From the NCBI RefSeq assembly GCF_058153355.1, contig NZ_CM177019.1: 64,000 nucleotides of DNA. One strand, 5' to 3'. Made by a program: the position numbers and the translations under genes. Shown here piece after piece: positions 9,512 through 60,482 of the stretch (position 1 is its first letter; each line of letters opens with the position of its first letter). The notes below the pieces were generated by a model. The model made no database searches and was not told where the DNA came from. It saw nothing but the letters and a program-made list of their open reading frames with translations.

Positions 9512-9563
9512 TTGACACTGTTTATTCATACAGTTAAAAATAATACTGTATAAAAACGCAGTA
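9512..9563 (+). promoter_or_regulatory. SOS promoter with two LexA boxes
   Basis: TTGACA (9512..9517), 17-nt spacer, TAAAAA. Box 1 is CACTGTTTATTCATACAGTT (9516..9535) and box 2 is TACTGTATAAAAACGCAGTA (9544..9563). Both fit CTG-N10-CAG. Confidence 0.8.
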
Positions 9564-9577
9564 GAGAGGGGTTTTTT

Positions 9578-9826
9578 ATGCGTATTGAGATCTGCATAGC
9601 CAAAGAGAAAATGACTAAAATGCCAAACGGTGCTGTGGATGCGTTAAAGGAAGAATTAACTCGGCGCATCAGTAAGCGTTATGACGATGTAGAAGTGATC
9701 GTAAAAGCCACCAGCAATGATGGGCTTTCTGTTACACGCACCGCAGATAAGGATTCTGCAAAAACATTTGTTCAGGAGACTCTGAAAGATACCTGGGAGT
9801 CTGCTGACGAGTGGTTTGTTCACTAA
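9578..9826 (+). CDS. DinI-like DNA-damage-inducible protein
   Basis: 82 aa. MRIEICIAK...[16 protein letters not shown] parallels DinI (MRIEVTIAK...ILQETWESADDWFV). Preceded by LexA boxes. Confidence 0.85.
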
Positions 9827-32636: not shown

Positions 32637-33689
32637 TTATTTCCCCACCAGTTCACTTACCTCTTTCACCGTCTGGTTAAACCGATCTGACTCAAACTCA
32701 ACACCTAACGCCCGACGCCCCAGCGCCATTGCTGCTTTTATTGTGGAACCGGATCCCATAAAGAAATCAGCAACCAGATCGCCTGGTCGACTACTGGCAT
32801 TGATTATTTGCCGGAGCATATCCGCAGGCTTCTCACACGGATGTTTACCCGGGTAGAACTGAACGGGTTTATGCGTCCAGACGTCGGTATAAGGCACGGA
32901 AACTGATACGGAGAAATAGCGCCGGAGAGTTTTAAACTCATCCAGCAATTCAGAATATTTGCGATTCAGTGAATCATAAGATGCCACCAGCTGGTGGTGT
33001 GTGTGTTCCAGTTGTTGTTCCTGAAACTTCTCTGCCGCTATACGGGAAAACAGTGCCTGCAACTTTCGGTAGTCAGCCTCGTTCGGCAACTGCCACTGAC
33101 TGGCACCAAACCAGTGGGAAACCATATTTTTCTTACCAGTGGCTTCGGCAATCTGTTTTGCCGTTATCCCCAGTTCGGCACGAGCATCCCTGAAATACGA
33201 AATCAGCGGTGCCATTATGTGCTGTTTGAGTTCCCTTTCTTTTGCCGCATAGCCGTCACTTTTGCCGCGATATGGCCCCTGGTAATGTTCAGCAAACAGA
33301 ACGCGCTCTGTTGCGGGAAAATATGCGCGCAGACTTTCTTTATTACACCCGTTCCATCGTCCGGACGGCTTCGCCCAGATGATATGGTTAAGCACGTTGA
33401 AACGTTCACGCATCATGATCTCGATATCAGATGCGAGGCGATGTCCACAGAACAGGTAAAGGCTTCCGGCAGGTTTCAACACCCGCCAGAACTGGGCCAG
33501 ACAATGGTCCAGCCACTTAAGGTAATCTTCGTCCCCTTTCCACTGATTGTCCCAGCCGTTGGGTTTCACCTTGAAGTACGGCGGATCGGTAACAATCAGG
33601 TCAATGGAATCATCAGGCAGGGACTGAATAAAATACAGGCAATCAGCGTTGATTAAATCAGCACTGTTTATTTTTACAGTATTTTTCAT
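32637..33689 (-). CDS. orphan DNA methyltransferase (beta-class N6A/N4C; DPPY then FxGxG)
   Basis: IVTDPPYF near the N-terminus and DFFMGSGST near the C-terminus. No adjacent restriction gene. Confidence 0.8.
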   Translation of the reverse strand: MKNTVKINSADLINADCLYFIQSLPDDSIDLIVTDPPYFKVKPNGWDNQWKGDEDYLKWLDHCLAQFWRVLKPAGSLYLFCGHRLASDIEIMMRERFNVLNHIIWAKPSGRWNGCNKESLRAYFPATERVLFAEHYQGPYRGKSDGYAAKERELKQHIMAPLISYFRDARAELGITAKQIAEATGKKNMVSHWFGASQWQLPNEADYRKLQALFSRIAAEKFQEQQLEHTHHQLVASYDSLNRKYSELLDEFKTLRRYFSVSVSVPYTDVWTHKPVQFYPGKHPCEKPADMLRQIINASSRPGDLVADFFMGSGSTIKAAMALGRRALGVEFESDRFNQTVKEVSELVGK

Positions 33690-33838
33690 GGATCAGTAAG
33701 CGTAACTCTGGTAGGCTCACTCTGCTTTTGCGCTAAAGCAGTGGGCCGAGGTTCGCTTGTGACCAGTAAGCATGAGCGAATGGCTGGCAGGTGCTACCAA
33801 CACCCACCAGCCGCCCATTTTCACAAATTAAAAGCCCT

Positions 33839-34057: not shown

Positions 34058-34152
34058 GACATACCAATAACTCTTGTCTAAAAAGCCAGCAAGATAAAAA
34101 GTCAGTATTCACGACCACCAGCGTGTTTACCGTACTGCCAACATCAAGGCAC

Positions 34153-34177
34153 AAAAAAACCCGCTCAGCGGCGGGTT
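34153..34177 (-). terminator. late-operon terminator (tR'-like) downstream of the late promoter
   Basis: Minus strand: AACCCGC-CGCTGA-GCGGGTT followed by TTTTTTT, about 50 nt downstream of the predicted late promoter. Confidence 0.75.
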
Positions 34178-34223
34178 CTTAAATCTTATCAACGGTAGAC
34201 ATACAAAGCCCATCGTTGGGACA

Positions 34224-34252
34224 ATCTTATCCATATTTTTTGAAAAATGCAA
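34224..34252 (-). promoter_or_regulatory. late promoter (PR'-like) downstream of Q
   Basis: Minus strand: TTGCAT - 17 nt - TAAGAT, located 32 nt after the Q stop and ahead of the terminator. This is the lambda Q/PR'/tR' arrangement. Confidence 0.65.
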
Positions 34253-34283: not shown

Positions 34284-35036
34284 TTATCTCGTCACTTTTC
34301 TTAATTGCGTCTCAGCATATGCTTCTTCCTGCCAGCACTTTGTCACCAGTTTATCAATGACATCTGCATATCCTTTGTACCACTGATAATCCGTCAAATC
34401 TGGTACCAGTTTCTGTACATGACACCGCGCCAGTGTCGTTGGTAAACGGCTAAACCGGTTTCCATTGCAACGTCCACAAATCTTATAAACAGGCCTGCCA
34501 TGAAGCCGGGTCCTTTTTTCATCCAGGACAATACCTTTACCCTTACACCCTCTGCACGCTGTGCTGACTTCTCCCTTACCATGGCAATGCTGACACAGTT
34601 CCTTTACCCACTCTTCCTTGATAACAGATTCCCCGCTTCTGGAGTGTTTCACCACTTCGCGCAATACATTATGAAATCCAGTACCAGCACAATGCTCACA
34701 GCAAGCCTTACTTGCCGCAGACCTGGAATAATCAGCAAAGGCAAAATTCACAAGGTAAGGAATGATCTGTAGCCGGGTTTCTTCACTCAATTTGTTCAAT
34801 GTCGGGTTATCCAGTGCCATCGCGTAATTGAGCAGACCTTCAATCGCAAACTGAGGATCCTGAATACCAAGTTTTGCCAGGAATAAGGCAAACCCAAGCG
34901 GTGCTTTCGACTGCACCATCCCCTGCGCAGCCATTACATCCGTAATTGTTAAACCACCAGAGCCTGTCGCCGGTGCGTCATCGCTCAATATTGGAGATTT
35001 TGGGGAGTAATATTTCGGTAAGGCTTCAAGGTTCAT
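34284..35036 (-). CDS. antitermination protein Q (QuuQ/YdfT-like, DnaJ-type zinc-finger repeats)
   Basis: 250 aa. CEHCAGTG, CQHCHGKG, CRGCKGKG and CGRCNGNR repeats, as in the Qin prophage Q homologue. Confidence 0.75.
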   Translation of the reverse strand: MNLEALPKYYSPKSPILSDDAPATGSGGLTITDVMAAQGMVQSKAPLGFALFLAKLGIQDPQFAIEGLLNYAMALDNPTLNKLSEETRLQIIPYLVNFAFADYSRSAASKACCEHCAGTGFHNVLREVVKHSRSGESVIKEEWVKELCQHCHGKGEVSTACRGCKGKGIVLDEKRTRLHGRPVYKICGRCNGNRFSRLPTTLARCHVQKLVPDLTDYQWYKGYADVIDKLVTKCWQEEAYAETQLRKVTR

Positions 35037-35049
35037 GCTCGTTCTCCAC

Positions 35050-36045
35050 TTACGCCAGTACGCCTATTGCCAGCGCACGATCGATAAAACGAAATATCAG
35101 CTCCAGCTGGGAGCCATACTTCTCTTCAAATGCCGCGGTATCCGCATGCAACTCGTCGTGATGCTTTCTGCACAAAGGCAACACAAAGAGGTCATGCGCT
35201 TTTGTACCCATTCCGCCCTGACCGTGGCCTATCAGGTGGTGGGGATCATCAGCAGGCTTTCCACAACATGCACACGGCTGTGTCTTAACCCAGCGCGTGT
35301 ACTTTTCGTTAACCCAGCGGCGACGTTTTGGGCGTAACATAAAAGACTCCGGCGACTCCGGATCCACTTTCAGCGCCAGCACCTTTTTCACTTTATCCTG
35401 GATGATGCTGGTGGCAGGAACCGAAGGAACAAGGTCACTTTCCCGGGTGACAGACGGCACAACAGGCTTCGGTAATCTCAGTGCCTTACGGGCTGCACTT
35501 TCCGGCAAGGCACCCGCCAGGTCATTACGAACCAGCCACCAGCACAGTTCCGGCATTGTCACAACGTGACTATCATCAAAACCGAGATCCCGACGCACGA
35601 CAGACAACACCCAGCGGGCACAGTTATCCGTTGCCATTGATTCCAGCCGTTCCGTGAACTGATCGCGCAGCTGGTTATCGCAGTGCCAGCACAGACGGAT
35701 TGCGCCCGGCGCGTGTCGCATTGTGGTCATGTTCTCGCTGTGCCAGTCGGAATGAGGCCACTGACAGCCATTTTCACGAAGTAACCAGCTTTCAAGACAT
35801 TCCACGCCACCAGCACGACGGATCACTGCCTCATTGCGGAACACGCCCCGAACGGCAGGATCATCCGCCAGCGGTTGTGATACCGCCGGAACGGCACCAC
35901 TGGCGAAAGATGAATAACGTTCCGGCTCAGGCTCCAGCAGGACACGCCCCTGCATAAACAGGGGCATCAGCTCTGAACCTGGTCTGAACAATACGATCCC
36001 CATACGCGGGGCAATTTCAGGGGTCAGTAATGCTCTCACGGTCAC
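35050..36045 (-). CDS. DUF968-family protein (YdfU/YfdN-like) with C-terminal HNH-like motif
   Basis: 331 aa. C-terminal CACCGKPADDPHHLIGHGQGGMGTKAHDLFVLPLCRKHHDELH. Confidence 0.6.
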   Translation of the reverse strand: MTVRALLTPEIAPRMGIVLFRPGSELMPLFMQGRVLLEPEPERYSSFASGAVPAVSQPLADDPAVRGVFRNEAVIRRAGGVECLESWLLRENGCQWPHSDWHSENMTTMRHAPGAIRLCWHCDNQLRDQFTERLESMATDNCARWVLSVVRRDLGFDDSHVVTMPELCWWLVRNDLAGALPESAARKALRLPKPVVPSVTRESDLVPSVPATSIIQDKVKKVLALKVDPESPESFMLRPKRRRWVNEKYTRWVKTQPCACCGKPADDPHHLIGHGQGGMGTKAHDLFVLPLCRKHHDELHADTAAFEEKYGSQLELIFRFIDRALAIGVLA

Positions 36046-36046
36046 C

Positions 36047-36862
36047 TCAATGAACGGTATCGAGCAGCTTTAACAGCTCAGGGAATCGGGATTCGAAGAA
36101 ATGCGGCTGCGTCTCGCGCGGATTTGCGGGACTGGTGATGTTCTTGCCGAACATGCAGCCTTTCGCTGTCAGCGACCAGAATTTTTTGATGTTGTTAATC
36201 GCGGTACGGCTGTATCGTTCGCGTTGTTCGACGATCCCCAGCTTCGCCATCTGGTGATATGCCTGATTAGCCGTCAGGCGGATACCATACTGTTTCAGCA
36301 GTGCACTCAGCGACAGCGTAGGGCGGCTTGAACCATCTGGCGCATCAGCAGGGGCATCAATGGCATAGATCGGCATAAGTTCAGGAAGACCAGCTACCTT
36401 TGATAATTTCTGGTATGCACCAAGTTTCGAGGAGTTTGACAGATTTAGAGTCTTTGCTGCTGATTCAAGCAGAATGACCCCGGATTTGATTTTGTCGGAT
36501 ATGGTTTCTTCTGGTGATGAATTATGAAGCGCATCAAAAGTACGTATCACTTTTAAGCTGAATGCCGGGCTGATCCACATTGCATATGCATAGACCAGCT
36601 CTTTACAGACATACGTCCCACCATTGCGCCCCTGAATGGTGATGACAGGAATACTACGGGAATCTCCCGTAGTTTCTTCTTCCAATAATTCCACAAGAGC
36701 CTTCGTTTCAGGACGACGCATAAACTCGTGAACTTCCAGCGAACGGGAGGAGCGATTCTCACCAGCAGCAAGAAGAGCAGCTTTCTGAAGGTCGTTAAGA
36801 CAGTAGTTAGATTCGAAGTACTGGCGCACAGAAACGCCATCAATTACAAGCAACTGATTCAT
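36047..36862 (-). CDS. KilA-N domain / antirepressor-like protein
   Basis: ATG 36862 with GGAGA 5 nt upstream (the track starts at GTG 36874). The N-terminal half resembles KilA-N (…IQGRNGGTYVCKELVYAYAMWISPAFSLKVI…). The C-terminal half is Ant-like. Confidence 0.65.
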   Translation of the reverse strand: MNQLLVIDGVSVRQYFESNYCLNDLQKAALLAAGENRSSRSLEVHEFMRRPETKALVELLEEETTGDSRSIPVITIQGRNGGTYVCKELVYAYAMWISPAFSLKVIRTFDALHNSSPEETISDKIKSGVILLESAAKTLNLSNSSKLGAYQKLSKVAGLPELMPIYAIDAPADAPDGSSRPTLSLSALLKQYGIRLTANQAYHQMAKLGIVEQRERYSRTAINNIKKFWSLTAKGCMFGKNITSPANPRETQPHFFESRFPELLKLLDTVH

Positions 36863-36959
36863 TGGTTTCTCCACAAATTTTTATCCACGAGCGGGACTGC
36901 ACTCCCTTTTCGTTGATGCAGGATGCACTTACTGCGATTTTTAATAGTTATCAAGGGCA

Positions 36960-36979
36960 TACTGTTCATAAATACAGTA
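36960..36979. promoter_or_regulatory. LexA box upstream of the KilA-N/Ant gene
   Basis: TACTGTTCATAAATACAGTA (CTGT-N8-ACAG), 98 nt upstream of the ATG in the 162-nt rusA-kilA gap. Confidence 0.8.
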
Positions 36980-37024
36980 TCTTTAACGAGGTAATACCCA
37001 AATTTAGGGTGTTGCTCAATTCCG

Positions 37025-37420
37025 TTACCGAGTTGCTAATTTGCAACTCGCTTTTTCGTACTTACTGATAGTGATCTCGACCTTCCCTTCCGGGATAACC
37101 GGTCCCCACTCCACCAGCATTCTTTTCACCTGACTGTCGTCTTCCCACACACCCGCGTGGGTCAGAGCGTCAAACAGCGCCTTGTTATAGTTGTCCAGAT
37201 CGCGGATCCGGTTATCCGGAGGAAACAACACGATCTCCACTGAAGCAGGTGCCGACGTTGGTTTCGGCAGACGACGTAACTGCTCAACTATTGCTGCGCA
37301 CGCCGCGCTCTGGAATTTGCGCCCCGCCGCGCTTATCAGGCTTTTACCAGCAAACGCCCCTTTGTTAGGGTGTCGCCAGTACGTATTCACGCTGGGCGGG
37401 AAAGGCAGGATCAGTTTCAT
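37025..37420 (-). CDS. rusA: RusA-family Holliday junction resolvase
   Basis: 131 aa. LPFPPSVNTYW...RDLDNYNKALFDALTHAGVWEDDSQV, typical of RusA. Confidence 0.85.
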   Translation of the reverse strand: MKLILPFPPSVNTYWRHPNKGAFAGKSLISAAGRKFQSAACAAIVEQLRRLPKPTSAPASVEIVLFPPDNRIRDLDNYNKALFDALTHAGVWEDDSQVKRMLVEWGPVIPEGKVEITISKYEKASCKLATR

Positions 37421-37743
37421 ACTTTCAGGCCTCTCTCATGTAACCAGTGGGTTGCACGCAGCCTTGCGTTTTCCTCACCGGCAAGCAGTGAGCGGATAAT
37501 CCCGACAGCCTCGCTGTCGTCGTCCTTCACCGCGGTATGAAGCGTTATCCCCCGGGCCACGCCACGCTTTATCGTGATGACGCCTTTTTTCTCCAGTGCG
37601 CGAAGATGCTCCACCGCTGCATTCACTGAACGGTATCCCAGCATGGTTGCCACCTCCTGATTGGTTGGCGGGAAGCCACGTTCTTTCTGGTAAGAAATCA
37701 GCATATCCAGCACCTGCTGCTGGCATTGAGTTAATGTCGTCAT
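37417..37743 (-). CDS. LexA N-terminal DNA-binding-domain protein lacking the S24 peptidase domain
   Basis: 108 aa. LTQCQQQVLDMLISYQKERGFPPTNQEVATMLGYRSVNAAVEHLRALEKKGVITIKRGVARGITL aligns with LexA residues ~4-69. The 40-aa tail is unrelated. Confidence 0.8.
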   Translation of the reverse strand: MTTLTQCQQQVLDMLISYQKERGFPPTNQEVATMLGYRSVNAAVEHLRALEKKGVITIKRGVARGITLHTAVKDDDSEAVGIIRSLLAGEENARLRATHWLHERGLKV

Positions 37744-38393
37744 GCCGCCATCTCCCTGACCAGTTTTTCCGCCTGCTGGCGAACCTGCGCCAGAAAGGCC
37801 TCACCACATGCCTCAAGTTCATCGCGCCCGATGTAGCTGATTGCCGGTCCCTTCCAGGTCTTGTCGAAAACAACAATAGCACCAGCGAAGAAAGCGCCTG
37901 TCGGCACCTGCTTCTCGTCCTTCGGTATAAACCAGGCAGGCAGTTCAAAACCAATACGCCCGCGAATAAAAGCAATATGATCTGCATCTTCCGGCCACCA
38001 CACTTCGCTGGTGGCAGCTTTGATCAGGAAAACATAGCGCCCGCCTTTATCACGCATGGCACTGGCATGTTTCATGATGTAACGCATGCCGGTGATGTAT
38101 TGCCCCTCATGCTGACTGGCGCGGCTGTATGGGGGATTACCAAAGGCAGCACCTTTAAGCTCCGCAAGACGTTCTGACCAGTCATGCGCCAGCGCGTTGT
38201 CTTCCGCCGTGTAATACGCGGCACATTTGGCGTTATCACCGTCAGTGAACAGATCCAGAACAAACGGACCAAACAAGGTGTTAATTCCCCAGAAAATGTT
38301 GTCCGGCGTGCGCCACTGATCGCCCACTTCCTTCAGTTCATGGGCTGGTTTGTTCCGCAGTTCTACCAGCGCCTGGCAATATTTATTACTCAT
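37740..38393 (-). CDS. phage Dam-type N6-adenine DNA methyltransferase
   Basis: 217 aa. FGNPPYS catalytic motif. Size and N-terminus (WRTPDNIF) typical of the phage N6A-MTase family. Confidence 0.75.
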   Translation of the reverse strand: MSNKYCQALVELRNKPAHELKEVGDQWRTPDNIFWGINTLFGPFVLDLFTDGDNAKCAAYYTAEDNALAHDWSERLAELKGAAFGNPPYSRASQHEGQYITGMRYIMKHASAMRDKGGRYVFLIKAATSEVWWPEDADHIAFIRGRIGFELPAWFIPKDEKQVPTGAFFAGAIVVFDKTWKGPAISYIGRDELEACGEAFLAQVRQQAEKLVREMAA

Positions 38394-38485
38394 TAAGCCC
38401 CCACGTAAAAAGCATCCGCAATGTCTCCGGAAGTACAGCCCGGATGGGCTTCAATGAATTTCTGAACGTCATTTAACAGACTCAT
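38393..38485 (-). CDS. 30-aa ORF translationally coupled between the O-like and Dam genes
   Basis: ATG 2 nt after the O-like TGA, and its TAA overlaps the Dam ATG (TAATG). MSLLNDVQKFIEAHPGCTSGDIADAFYVGA. Confidence 0.4.
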   Translation of the reverse strand: MSLLNDVQKFIEAHPGCTSGDIADAFYVGA

Positions 38486-38487
38486 GA

Positions 38488-39480
38488 TCACCCCCTGAAT
38501 CCTGCCGGGATCTGGCTGTAGTCCACGTTGTCGTAACTGGCTTTGAAGTACGGGTCTTCACGTTTTTCTGTGTGCGTGCTGACGGACGGCGATAAGCGCA
38601 GGGAAAGCTCATCCCATTTTTCCCGCAACTTCGACGGGCTGAGCACGTTACGGCACCAGAACGGATCGCGGCTGACGCGGCTGTACATCTCGCAGATTTG
38701 TTTGTGAGTACGACCATCCTGCACACACATCAGGCGAATTTCGTTTGCCCATGCTGTCCAGTTCGGTTCTTTGGGACGAACCACCTCGCCGTCACATTCG
38801 GCGGCCTGCTCGTACAGGGCGATGATTTTTTTCCAGAGCCACTGTGCGCAGGTCAAATCATCCTGCGTTCCCCACTGGCGCTTTTTAGGGCTGAATACAA
38901 CCGCATCAGGATGGCGAGTTAAAAACTCCTGTTCAGCCGTTTGCGTGTCCGGTTGCGAAGCGTCCGGACGAGAAGAGGTTTTATTCTCTGTAGTAATCTC
39001 TGTTGTATTCTCTGTAAGATCATTGGGCCATTTTGACCCGATGACAGCGTGTCGTTTTGAACCAATGGATCGTGTCATTTTGCGCCCATCCATCAGGTCA
39101 CTTTGACCCGATGGAGAAGTGCATTTTGACCTGATGGATTCGTTCACTTTGACCTCTTCTAAAAGCTCACTTTCATAGTTGATCGTGTAGAAGTTGGTCA
39201 TGTCACGCTTCGATTTATTGAGTTGCTCGCGACGCAAAACCCCAAGTGATTTCAAGCTTGCAAATGTGCGTTTCAGAGTGGACTCTGACCAGAACGGAAA
39301 CTGCTCCAGCCACTGTTCTGTCGTGTTATAAACCCAGCGAATTCCGCCATGCTCTGTGCCTGAATTCGTTTCATTCAGCCAGTAATGAAGCTGCTGCAAC
39401 ACAATTGCCTCATTCAGACCAATACGGCATGCAAGATCACGATTTATCACAATGGGCTGGGATGTCATTAACAGGCTCAT
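38488..39480 (-). CDS. replication initiation protein (O-like) containing the origin iterons
   Basis: 330 aa. N-terminal wHTH-like region, an internal repeat-encoded linker and a conserved C-terminal domain. Position after the CII-like genes. Confidence 0.75.
   Translation of the reverse strand: MSLLMTSQPIVINRDLACRIGLNEAIVLQQLHYWLNETNSGTEHGGIRWVYNTTEQWLEQFPFWSESTLKRTFASLKSLGVLRREQLNKSKRDMTNFYTINYESELLEEVKVNESIRSKCTSPSGQSDLMDGRKMTRSIGSKRHAVIGSKWPNDLTENTTEITTENKTSSRPDASQPDTQTAEQEFLTRHPDAVVFSPKKRQWGTQDDLTCAQWLWKKIIALYEQAAECDGEVVRPKEPNWTAWANEIRLMCVQDGRTHKQICEMYSRVSRDPFWCRNVLSPSKLREKWDELSLRLSPSVSTHTEKREDPYFKASYDNVDYSQIPAGFRG
39028..39160. repeat. origin iterons inside the O-like gene
   Basis: Five to six copies of CA(T/C)TTTGACC(C/T)GATGG-like units at about 23-bp spacing (39028, 39053, 39076, 39098, 39121, 39144), followed by an AT-rich stretch. 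Confidence 0.75.
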
Positions 39481-39649: not shown

Positions 39650-39828
39650 AGGACTGTCTCCTTCTGCCGGTTGAAATCACCCACAGCCCACTCTGCAAAG
39701 CTGTGGGTTACAATTTCCCTGTCACCTGGTACATTCACTGCATAGCAATACTCCACCTTCGCTTTTCCACCCGGTACAGGAAGCGCAATCAGTTGCGAGC
39801 GACGGTAGTGTGTTGTTAAACTGTTCAT
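39490..39828 (-). CDS. YmfM-like hypothetical protein (112 aa; 3' part doubtful)
   Basis: Same size and position as e14 ymfM (after the ymfL-like gene). The 3' 160 nt overlap another plausible ORF. Confidence 0.45.
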
Positions 39829-40409
39829 GCGTTAGTTTCTCCACAGACACAAAACGCCACGACGCCCGGAGCTGCACACTCGCGGGCGTCACTCTTTTCT
39901 GGAGCGCAAAAGATTTTGTAGACCAGTGCTGCATGCTCCTGGAGCTTCGAAATTGACAGATACAACTCATCATTAATTACTGTCTGCTCGTGTGGCTCCA
40001 CTACCCCATCTTCGATTGCCGAACGAATCTGCTTTGAGTAACTCCCGATCTGTTCGATGACTTCCAGCAGACGCTGGTTTATATCGGCGTTCTCTACTTC
40101 CTCAATTTCAGGAAGCGATACAAACACCCCACCAGCAGACTGTGCGACAGCATCCGCAATGTAGTGAGTGCCAGCCGCGCGCTGTAAAATCATTGCCCAT
40201 CCCAGCGGGAAAATCTGATCGCCATCTGCACGAAGGCGGTTGAATAAAGCGTTCTCTGTTACATCCAGCCACTCAGCAGCTTCAGCGTAACCTCCCGGCA
40301 ACGCCGCGATAGTTTTTCTGACAGCTTTCACGTACCACTCAGGCTGTTTTTCTACTTTCCAGTGATGCTTACCCACGGCTATCTCCTTAAAACTGTGGTT
40401 ACTTTCCAT
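39825..40409 (-). CDS. CII-like / YmfL-family phage regulatory protein
   Basis: 194 aa. Second gene of the rightward early operon, after cro. Resembles e14 YmfL (from memory). Confidence 0.55.
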
Positions 40410-40647
40410 CAGATAAGTCTTTAATCTTTTGAAAAATATCTGGACGTAATTTTTCTTTTGATACGCCAGTGGTCATTTCAATGAATATCGAGAGCTTTGC
40501 AGGGGGACGCTTTTCTCTGTTCAACCAGTTCCAGACATGTTGTTGCTTTACTAAACGACCACTGCTGGCTGTGAGCTTCCGAGCCAATTCTGATTGACCA
40601 CCAGCCAGAGCGATTGCCTCTGATAAGGCTAATTGCTCAGGTGTCAT
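40399..40647 (-). CDS. Cro-like HTH repressor
   Basis: 82 aa. HTH ...GGQSELARKLTASSGRLVKQQHVWNW... Divergent from cI across the operator region. Confidence 0.75.
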   Translation of the reverse strand: MTPEQLALSEAIALAGGQSELARKLTASSGRLVKQQHVWNWLNREKRPPAKLSIFIEMTTGVSKEKLRPDIFQKIKDLSDGK

Positions 40648-40784: not shown

Positions 40785-41471
40785 GTGAAAACATTGGCAG
40801 AAAGACTAAAAAGCGAAAGAGAAAAAGCAGGAATGAGTCAGGCGCAACTAGCTGAAAAAATTGGACTTTCACAACAATCCGTAGCGAAAATCGAGAATGG
40901 AGAAACTCAACAGCCTCGGAAAATTAAAGAGATTGCTAAAGTGTTAGGGGTTTCTCAAAAGTGGTTGCAATTGGGCATTGAGGATAACGCGTCTTTCCCA
41001 AACCTTGTTGTAAAGGAGGCTGAAAGTACAACATTAGATCCTGACATTTTTGCAAACATTCCTGTCCTAGATGTCGAATTATCAGCGGGTAATGGATGTT
41101 TGGCTGAAATAGTTGAATCAACTGTAGACTGGTTCCCGCTAAGAAGGATTGATTTAAGGAAAGCTGGTGTATGTGTCTCCAATGCAAAGATCGTAAAAAT
41201 TTGGGGTAATAGTTTACTACCTGTACTTAACAATGGAGATTTTGTTGCTGTTGATGTTTCCCAAACAGTTCCTATTCGTGATGGGGATCTTTATGCTATA
41301 CGTGATGGCGTATTACTTAGAGTTAAAATATTGATCAATTTACCTGACGGTGGTCTGATTCTAAGAAGTTTCAATAAAGATGAGTATCCAGATGAAATAC
41401 TCACCTTCGAAGATAGGCGTTCCAGAATTCACGTTATAGGTAGAGTATTCTGGTCATCGCGCACTTGGTAA
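40785..41471 (+). CDS. CI-type repressor (XRE HTH plus S24 LexA-like peptidase domain)
   Basis: GTG start with GAGGGGG upstream. HTH MSQAQLAEKIGLSQQSVAKIENG. C-terminal GNSLLPVL and LRVKIL (Ser/Lys dyad context). Confidence 0.85.
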   Translation: MKTLAERLKSEREKAGMSQAQLAEKIGLSQQSVAKIENGETQQPRKIKEIAKVLGVSQKWLQLGIEDNASFPNLVVKEAESTTLDPDIFANIPVLDVELSAGNGCLAEIVESTVDWFPLRRIDLRKAGVCVSNAKIVKIWGNSLLPVLNNGDFVAVDVSQTVPIRDGDLYAIRDGVLLRVKILINLPDGGLILRSFNKDEYPDEILTFEDRRSRIHVIGRVFWSSRTW

Positions 41472-59744: not shown

Positions 59745-60482
59745 ATGAAAAACGTTGGCGACCTGATGCAACGCCTGCAAAAAATGATGCCTGCCCATAT
59801 CAAACCCGCATTCAAAACGGGCGAAGAACTGCTGGCCTGGCAGAAAGAACAAGGGGCAATCCGCTCCGCCGCTCTCGAACGTGAAAACCGGGCGATGAAA
59901 ATGCAGCGCACCTTTAACCGCTCCGGTATTCGTCCACTGCATCAGAACTGCTCCTTTGAGAACTATCGCGTTGAGTGTGAAGGGCAGATGAATGCGTTAA
60001 GCAAAGCGCGCCAGTATGTCGAAGAGTTTGACGGCAACATCGCCAGCTTCATCTTTTCTGGCAAGCCAGGAACCGGCAAAAACCATCTGGCGGCGGCAAT
60101 CTGCAACGAGCTACTGCTACGCGGTAAATCCGTATTGATCATCACCGTGGCCGATATTATGTCGGCGATGAAAGATACCTTCAGGAATAGCGGTACCAGC
60201 GAAGAACAACTGCTTAACGATCTGAGCAACGTTGATCTGCTGGTGATCGATGAGATCGGTGTGCAGACCGAATCGAAATACGAAAAAGTGATCATCAACC
60301 AGATCGTCGATCGCCGCTCTTCTTCCAAACGCCCAACCGGAATGCTGACCAACAGTAATATGGAAGAGATGACCAAGTTGCTGGGCGAACGCGTGATGGA
60401 TCGTATGCGCCTGGGTAACAGTTTGTGGGTGATCTTCAACTGGGATAGCTACCGTAGCCGGGTAACGGGTAAAGAGTATTAA
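59745..60482 (+). CDS. dnaC: helicase loader DnaC
   Basis: 245 aa. Walker A GKPGTGKNHL and Walker B LLVIDEIG. Confidence 0.95.
   Translation: MKNVGDLMQRLQKMMPAHIKPAFKTGEELLAWQKEQGAIRSAALERENRAMKMQRTFNRSGIRPLHQNCSFENYRVECEGQMNALSKARQYVEEFDGNIASFIFSGKPGTGKNHLAAAICNELLLRGKSVLIITVADIMSAMKDTFRNSGTSEEQLLNDLSNVDLLVIDEIGVQTESKYEKVIINQIVDRRSSSKRPTGMLTNSNMEEMTKLLGERVMDRMRLGNSLWVIFNWDSYRSRVTGKEY

Follow-up and report, generated by a model that had tools for sequence, protein, structure and literature searches.

A probable LexA-gated KilA-N cassette upstream of the late antiterminator gene of a lambdoid prophage

We analysed a stretch of DNA of 64,000 nucleotides (nt) from contig NZ_CM177019.1 of RefSeq assembly GCF_058153355.1 (the window), in which a LexA (SOS) box lies between rusA and the gene for a KilA-N domain protein of a lambdoid prophage. 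A LexA-like palindrome recurs at the same place in front of KilA-N homologs from many genera, and we consider it rather probable that the box is a functional operator of host LexA within a horizontally exchanged cassette that joins the box and a sigma-70 promoter to a structured leader and the KilA-N gene. The argument rests on the following features.

36960..36979, palindromic arms, strand-neutral: LexA (SOS) box TACTGTTCATAAATACAGTA, found by consensus match and position weight matrix (PWM)
36863-37024, minus strand: gap of 162 nt between rusA and the KilA-N gene
36926..36954, minus strand: putative sigma-70 promoter with -35 TTGATA (36954-36949), a 17-nt spacer and -10 TAAGTG (36931-36926), placed by homology to the promoter of relatives
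36974..37019, minus strand: two weak alternative promoter candidates overlapped by the box, suggested by a PWM scan
36888..36912, minus strand: conserved 5'-leader hairpin CGAAAAGGGA-GUGCAG-UCCCGCUCG with its loop at 36897-36902, found by covariation
36047-36862, minus strand: KilA-N domain protein of 271 amino acids (aa) (PF04383, 1.3e-15; phrog_129)
35050-36045, minus strand: DUF968 protein of 331 aa, YdfU family, with a C-terminal HNH motif (PF06147, 7e-81; HNHc_6; phrog_96)
34284-35036, minus strand: late antiterminator Q of 250 aa (PF03589, 1.1e-52, 176.5 bits; phrog_127)

The box TACTGTTCATAAATACAGTA fits TACTGT-N8-ACAGTA with 0 mismatches around an A/T-rich spacer and has the form of a LexA operator, a TACTG(TA)5CAGTA palindrome with the invariant CTG-N10-CAG. 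Compared with the full 20-nt consensus TACTGTATATATATACAGTA it has 3 mismatches, and 0 matches of this quality were obtained in 100 dinucleotide shuffles. Its PWM score of 23.6 bits is the highest in the window and exceeds the median of the training sites (19.9 bits, with a range of 12.8-26.4 bits); the same scan picked up three other strong LexA boxes in the window. The canonical box that the original prediction had placed in the rusA/KilA-N gap is thus confirmed, with perfect arms and none expected by chance. The gap itself had been called the only sizeable one of the operon; it is indeed the largest, but there is a further gap of 94 nt at 38394-38487.

We next turn to homologous loci. A genome scan for KilA-N homologs yielded 71 loci, which extend from Enterobacterales to Aeromonas and further, and the box was sought in the 48 homologous loci with a complete KilA-N N-terminus, 28 of which have a longer or unresolved upstream gap. 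No LexA-like site was found in loci where KilA-N starts 42 nt or less from the upstream gene, while gaps of about 64-155 nt usually hold a CTGT/CTGG/GTGG-N8-ACAG/CCAG/TCAG palindrome, placed 75-165 nt ahead of the KilA-N start codon. Of the 28 loci, 13 had a site of 12 bits or more at -75..-165, compared with 0.55% of the 1650 background windows taken from these loci. Box sequences vary, and the hosts are diverse (Citrobacter, Enterobacter, Pantoea, Rosenbergiella, Serratia, Erwinia and Edwardsiella). In the box-bearing homologs the best predicted sense-strand sigma-70 promoter faces KilA-N, and the box overlaps its -10/+1 or its -35 or abuts the -35: it lies over -10/+1 in Erwinia, Serratia, Rahnella and one Pantoea locus (L011), over -35 in Pantoea, Rosenbergiella, Buttiauxella and Edwardsiella, and at -60..-41 in the E. 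coli-like group. Such a pattern, a LexA-type palindrome kept amid changing promoter architecture, is to be expected under selection for LexA control. Several box-bearing loci have no gene for a phage LexA paralog within 5 kb, so that host LexA is the simplest binder. Since both the palindrome and a predicted promoter facing KilA-N are conserved in many genera, the LexA-controlled internal promoter proposed originally is the best reading of the gap. A literature search on LexA-regulated KilA-N genes or Q found no description of LexA control of this cassette, and the genome paper of phage SfIV mentions neither LexA nor SOS.

The cassette appears to move as a block. It is at least 98.6% identical in the Shigella phage SfIV, the Escherichia phage PhiR49_1 and 184-185 of 5426 complete E. 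coli genomes, and it is joined to at least three different Q alleles. In SfV and a Stx2k phage, the flanking LexA paralog, rusA, DUF968 and Q genes are 94-97% identical to those of the window; there, 19 nt separate rusA from KilA-N, no box is present and the KilA-N allele is 66% identical. Homology with these two phages breaks exactly at the rusA 3' end (...AGTACGA(A/G)AAA). The comparison suggests a mosaic cassette, composed of the box, the promoter, the covarying 5' hairpin and KilA-N, which SfV-type relatives do not have.

The leader hairpin stands about 25-50 nt upstream of the KilA-N start and is followed by an A-rich tract and a GGAG Shine-Dalgarno sequence at 36869-36872. Its stems are wholly different between lineages, its UGCAG loop is invariant in 22 loci, and compensatory changes occur in all seven consensus pairs. 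Fully 84% of the hairpin cells are paired, compared with 57% in shuffles, none of 500 of which reached 84%; slid registers gave far lower values. The covariance model matched only in front of KilA-N genes, including a Pantoea locus that was not part of the seed, and scored weakly at the SfV-type junction, where GGCGG-GTGCAG-CCGCC lies within the coding end of rusA. The hairpin is kept even where it overlaps the end of rusA, and the loci of Proteus and Morganella have a counterpart whose loop reads GUACG or AUACG. The probable role of the hairpin is to control how the KilA-N mRNA is translated or how stable it is, and it is possibly a new cis-regulatory RNA motif. A covariance-model match at 60238-60291, inside a long open reading frame (ORF) resembling dnaC by eye, was set aside as chance (E=0.01). 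We also rejected the hairpin as an intrinsic terminator, there being no U-run on the sense strand, and as an N-type boxB, whose loops are unlike this one and for whose nutR the overlap of the cro-like and CII-like genes leaves no room. Rfam scans of the gap, the leader hairpin and a conserved element upstream of the DNA methyltransferase gene found no family, only sub-threshold chance matches; terminator-like leader matches in Rfam fell at the tR' terminator downstream of Q.

The genes behind the leader are tightly packed, with 1 nt between KilA-N and DUF968 and 13 nt between DUF968 and Q. Downstream of Q follow the elements on which its product presumably acts.

34252-34224, minus strand: putative late promoter pR', TTGCAT-17-TAAGAT, suggested by the sequence
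about 34153-34175, minus strand: terminator tR', a hairpin with U7 (-13.5 kcal/mol, z -3.1), which together with pR' forms a unit at 34150..34252, the presumed target of Q

Beyond tR' lie a small ORF, the DNA methyltransferase gene and lysis genes; the holin and lysozyme ORFs 3' of Q are homologous to the S and R genes of SfV. In comparison with tR', no credible sense-strand terminator was found between KilA-N and Q: the three sense-strand hairpins there lie within ORFs and are weak (-5 to -9 kcal/mol, z +0.1 to -1.6). The earlier description of a packed unit free of terminators therefore stands. DUF968 follows KilA-N by 5-25 nt in homologous loci, the adjacency being nearly always kept, and Q, where identified in relatives, comes 17-64 nt further on. 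Owing to the tight packing and the lack of terminators, co-transcription of Q with KilA-N and DUF968 is plausible.

Several points count against a LexA-gated promoter and against a sizeable supply of Q from it, most of them concerning the copy in the window. A conserved promoter of the E. coli-like group, TTGAAA-17-TAAGGT or TAATGT, scores 10.2 bits, a value reached by 1.7% of 200-nt background windows. In the window it scores 4.1 bits owing to a G at 36926: the -10 reads TAAGTT in SfIV, PhiR49_1 and CFSAN061762 and TAAGTG here, and the T-to-G change removes the last base of the -10, the most conserved of the hexamer. Altogether the gap differs from those of SfIV and PhiR49_1 at three bases (36926; 36955-36959), and an identical 81-nt core is present in none of the 184 carrier E. 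coli genomes (best identity 96.3%, or three substitutions). Besides the -10, the window allele has TGCCC where that of SfIV reads TATCC. No promoter in the gap rose above background in the PWM scan, with the best candidates at 5.6-6.6 bits compared with a background median of 5.2 bits per 200 nt, and a consensus promoter scan of the gap found nothing. The two alternative candidates overlapped by the box are TTGAGC-17-TATTAC (box at +5..+24; 5.6 bits) and TTGGGT-16-TACTGT (box at -12..+7; 5.5 bits). With respect to the putative TTGATA-17-TAAGTG promoter, the box lies at about -60..-41 and abuts the -35, as in the E. coli-like group, and a position upstream of the -35 is an unusual place for a LexA operator. 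Furthermore, the bit scores of the boxes depend on a LexA PWM trained on 26 E. coli SOS boxes, and the binomial P of about 1e-22 for the enrichment of boxes is overstated because related loci were counted as independent. As for Q, read-through may be small or blocked in ways invisible in the sequence. A strong LexA-gated supply of Q would lead to lysis before CI cleavage and without replication and should be counter-selected, which argues for a weak promoter or an extra control. Given the change in its -10, the promoter may have a low output in this prophage, and the substitution at 36926 is a possible promoter-down change. For the cassette as a family, an SOS-gated promoter is well supported by the comparison of sequences.

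The remaining genes of the early region and the repressor gene were assigned as follows.

37025-37420, minus strand: rusA (PF05866), its 3' end being the mosaic junction with SfV-type phages
37417-37743, minus strand: LexA_DNA_bind-only protein of 108 aa (PF01726, 2.9e-19)
37740-38393, minus strand: Dam gene
38488-39480, minus strand: replication gene
39825-40409, minus strand: CII/CP76-like gene
40399-40647, minus strand: cro-like gene
40785-41471, plus strand: cI repressor, with HTH_3 and a full-length Peptidase_S24 match in a profile search

The full-length Peptidase_S24 match agrees with the autocleavage domain claimed earlier for CI. By eye, the motifs SAGNG, GNS and RVK can be read in the CI sequence, and GNS aligns with GDS of the SfIV CI. 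The cro-like and CII/CP76-like genes overlap and leave no room for nutR/tR1, and N-type antitermination is not apparent in the early operon; for this reason, PR transcripts may reach Q without antitermination.

Combining these data, we propose the following scheme for the host-LexA operator. The cassette would sit between rusA and DUF968, in the region equivalent to ninR of an N-less lambdoid prophage. In the lysogen, CI would close PR and LexA would close the internal promoter. Upon DNA damage, cleavage of LexA would open the internal promoter, and KilA-N together with the translationally coupled DUF968 would be made independently of PR. Since no terminator intervenes, some Q would probably be made as well. 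The likeliest products would be DNA-metabolism or DNA-binding functions rather than an antirepressor.

The box in the rusA/KilA-N gap is one of several in the window and in related prophages.

33662..33681: second strong LexA box (TACTGTAAAAATAAACAGTG on the minus strand), 22.6 bits, covering codons 3-9 of the DNA methyltransferase gene (32637-33689, minus strand)
9516-9535 (22.9 bits) and 9544-9563 (18.1 bits): LexA boxes found by PWM upstream of a DinI-family gene (9578-9826, plus strand)
L016:1371-1390, L012:1270-1289 and L021:548-567: boxes inside cI-like genes of other prophages

SfV and loci of Kluyvera, Rosenbergiella, Providencia and Lonsdalea have the palindrome of the methyltransferase gene at this position, and Gilliamella has it about 20 nt upstream of the aligned stretch, which suggests that the gene is under SOS control. 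Upstream of this gene is a conserved non-coding stretch of about 135 nt (33690-33826, minus strand) with predicted stems; compensatory changes occur in 11 of its 26 pairs across 7 genera, a short ORF within it is not conserved as protein, and it has no Rfam match. The dinI-like gene adjoins a long ORF resembling prfC by eye and tail-fibre-like ORFs, and looks like a typical SOS-controlled gene at an apparent prophage end. In Shigella, Citrobacter and Rosenbergiella prophages, a near-perfect LexA box (22-26 bits) lies in the linker part of the cI-like gene, where it could mark an SOS-controlled internal or antisense promoter.

Host LexA is not the only candidate for binding the box. The 108-aa protein, overlooked in the original prediction, is encoded in the same operon, two genes upstream of KilA-N, the gene downstream of the box. 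The leader hairpin and the boxes of the methyltransferase and dinI-like genes had likewise escaped that prediction. It matches TIGR00498 at positions 1-91 only and is thus a truncated LexA, a LexA winged helix-turn-helix without the S24 cleavage/dimerisation domain. It aligns 1:1 with residues 2-69 of E. coli LexA and keeps, in the recognition helix, Ser39, Asn41, Ala42 and Glu45, or four of five residues that contact DNA (taken from PMC3091678), with Val in place of Glu44. The paralog should recognise CTGT-type half-sites and, lacking a cleavage domain, should be insensitive to RecA. The box could be mainly an operator of the paralog, which would be made from PR after induction, re-occupy this box as well as those of the methyltransferase gene, of dinI and of the host SOS genes, and either re-close the promoter or, like gp6 of GIL01, activate it from about -50 and so time Q. 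The gp6 protein, likewise a LexA homolog in truncated form, activates a late promoter (PMC6182141). In paralog-carrying loci, the box occupies an activator-like position at -60..-41 of a promoter with a non-consensus -10, a hint of paralog binding, and a GTGGAT half-site, expected to suit host LexA poorly, is present in several of them; any association of box type with the paralog is, however, confounded by phylogeny. Moreover, the box in the window is a perfect host-type site, boxes are found in loci without the paralog within 5 kb, and conversely the paralog, of a family common in SfV-like and Stx-like phages, is present in SfV-type phages without this box. An isolated LexA N-terminal domain also binds DNA weakly without its dimerisation domain, and the tail of the paralog is 40 residues. 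On balance, we regard the paralog as an unlikely main user of the box.

The two LexA proteins could also act in turn. In such a timing circuit, host LexA would silence the KilA-N/DUF968/Q promoter together with the methyltransferase and dinI-like genes, and damage would give a pulse of Q independent of PR and CI, directed in Stx-type backbones to toxin and lysis genes. The uncleavable paralog made from PR would then re-occupy phage and host boxes, closing or boosting the promoter, and the UGCAG leader would add a post-transcriptional check on KilA-N. We think that the circuit as a whole is rather improbable and put it forward as a speculation.

The original prediction had gone beyond the operator. 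Taken in full, its model would have a LexA-controlled KilA-N antirepressor inactivate CI and the same transcript supply enough Q for late genes to be expressed independently of PR, giving two parallel SOS routes. A LexA box in front of the KilA-N gene and a Q gene downstream without an intervening terminator fit this model, and KilA-N domains are present in some Ant/Bro-type phage proteins. In addition, the LexA-controlled antirepressors of Gifsy phages have a similar map position (PMC3121763). The KilA-N domain of the protein (residues 10-114) scores 57.6 bits, compared with a Pfam gathering cut-off of 23.8. Searches of Pfam, PHROGs, NCBIfam and PADLOC gave only KilA-N for the window protein; no ANT/KilAC (PF03374), Tum or other antirepressor family was found in it or in 22 homologs, and no ANT domain was seen in these 23 proteins even at E<=5. 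An AlphaFold model (predicted local distance difference test 75, predicted template modelling score 0.42) had no match in the PDB better than E=0.29, and we rejected an antirepressor identity. The KilA-N core gave a weak PADLOC match to PDC-S22; no membership in a defence family was detected for the protein. The "antirepressor-like" label given to the gene is thus not borne out.

Comparison of immunity regions pointed in the same direction. The KilA-N allele is 99% identical in the window and in SfIV, whose CI proteins are unrelated, while SfIV and SfV, which have identical cI and cro (PMC3851460), carry different KilA-N alleles, SfIV with the box and SfV without it. The allele is therefore not associated with a particular immunity type, as that of an antirepressor would be. 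Nor does the prophage have the non-cleavable repressor that goes with antirepressor modules of the 186 Tum, Gifsy GfoA/GftA and P22-type Ant kind, for the window CI has a full S24 domain. In four other E. coli/Shigella carriers the repressor either bears the annotation LexA-family, UmuD-like or cI or is as long as the window CI, the S24 domain test having covered the window CI alone and the other carriers being judged by annotation or length. On this evidence, an antirepressor is not needed for SOS induction. Given the lack of antirepressor homology and of a link to immunity, the claim that this phage combines both induction mechanisms has no basis. DUF968 proteins have been described as combining an Orf/NinB-like domain with an HNH nuclease motif (PMC4118853), KilA-N is nearly always paired with them, and the pair occupies the position of the lambda ninR recombination genes. 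Together with the absence of antirepressor hits, this argues that the unit is most likely a DNA-binding/DNA-metabolism module rather than an antirepressor. Considering also the weak promoter in this copy, we find the full antirepressor model very unlikely.

An antisense role for the box is harder still to credit. The 3' end of rusA, some 50 nt upstream of the box, holds a strong palindrome, GAGTTGC-N6-GCAACTC (37029-37050), which folds on both strands (-13 kcal/mol, z about -5), has a U-run only on the plus (antisense) strand and may stop antisense transcription. The SfV-type allele has a different hairpin at this position. One could thus imagine that the box, which is symmetric and could serve either direction, drives a short leftward plus-strand antisense RNA into the rusA 3' end, terminating at the palindrome and U-run (37029-37058), a good intrinsic terminator on that strand only. 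However, the plus-strand promoter candidates, at 5.8-6.6 bits, are at background level, no Rfam match was found, and in other genera rusA coding sequence lies upstream of the box without a conserved plus-strand promoter or terminator, whereas the sense promoter and leader are conserved. We accordingly rejected a plus-strand small RNA, the probability of which we judge to be slight. It is just as hard to believe that the box is a chance palindrome or a decayed relic without a regulatory role in this prophage: the absence of a clear promoter in this copy and the T-to-G change in the conserved -10 would fit, but 0 matches are expected by chance, the box is intact in every carrier examined and LexA-like sites are found again at this position in many genera.

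With host LexA retained as the probable ligand, the cassette can be classed as a further LexA-gated prophage transcription unit. The closest known system is that of the dinI-antirepressor operons of Gifsy-1/2/3 in Salmonella, which are LexA-controlled (Lemire et al. 2011, PMC3121763). Like them, the unit described here lies in the rightward early region of a lambdoid prophage, downstream of the replication genes, has a LexA box and a putative promoter of its own, and would be SOS-inducible independently of PR. A strong terminator-like palindrome also precedes the Gifsy box (PMC3121763), as it does at 37029-37050 of the window. In contrast, the Gifsy units encode DinI and a small antirepressor, which is needed for induction since Gifsy repressors are not cleaved; here we find KilA-N and DUF968, a CI with S24, no antirepressor homology and Q directly after.

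The late end of the unit resembles the Q/pR'/tR' switch of lambda, with a Q gene (PF03589) upstream of a promoter, a terminator and a lysis cassette. Lambda Q, however, is reached only from PR via N-dependent antitermination, whereas the window appears to have an extra LexA-gated entry 1.8 kb upstream of Q and no room for nutR/tR1. Another known case is the p95-tum operon of coliphage 186, a P2-like phage with a non-cleavable repressor, in which LexA represses Tum, a small dedicated antirepressor. There, too, a host LexA operator gates a prophage gene and the SOS signal comes through LexA instead of repressor cleavage, but Tum is unrelated to KilA-N/DUF968 and has no link to a late antiterminator.

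GIL01 shares with the window host LexA boxes on phage promoters, putative ones in the case of the window, a phage-encoded LexA homolog reduced to the DNA-binding domain and late genes tied to the SOS state. The palindrome recognised by its gp6 is a distinct one, centred at -43.5 with respect to the late promoter, which gp6 has been shown to activate (Fornelos et al. 2018, PMC6182141). GIL01 differs in being a Bacillus tectivirus without CI, while the late genes of the window depend on Q antitermination; gp6 is the only studied analogue of the truncated paralog. Finally, BstA is a prophage abortive-infection protein with a KilA-N domain (Owen et al. 2021, PMC8585504). It resembles the window protein in its N-terminal KilA-N DNA-binding domain; its gene context and C-terminal domain differ, and it is not known as LexA-controlled.

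If the internal promoter is active, DNA damage would reach a lambdoid late antiterminator via LexA as well as via CI cleavage. Cleavage of LexA comes earlier than that of lambda-type repressors and takes less damage, and lysis would then have a different threshold and timing. The same box-KilA-N-DUF968-Q cassette, with immunity genes of the same length, is found in a Stx-phage-like backbone in E. coli STEC2018-553, a human isolate of Shiga toxin-producing E. coli (locus L077, 9001-18301), where Q is followed by tRNA-Ile/Arg/Arg, a pseudogene at the usual stx position and a SASA-family esterase gene. Located in such a backbone, the cassette could bear on toxin expression under SOS-inducing antibiotics. 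At the level of the family, the comparative data define a widespread KilA-N/DUF968 module that is predicted to be LexA-gated, a new conserved leader hairpin and a truncated, phage-encoded LexA family in enterobacterial phages.

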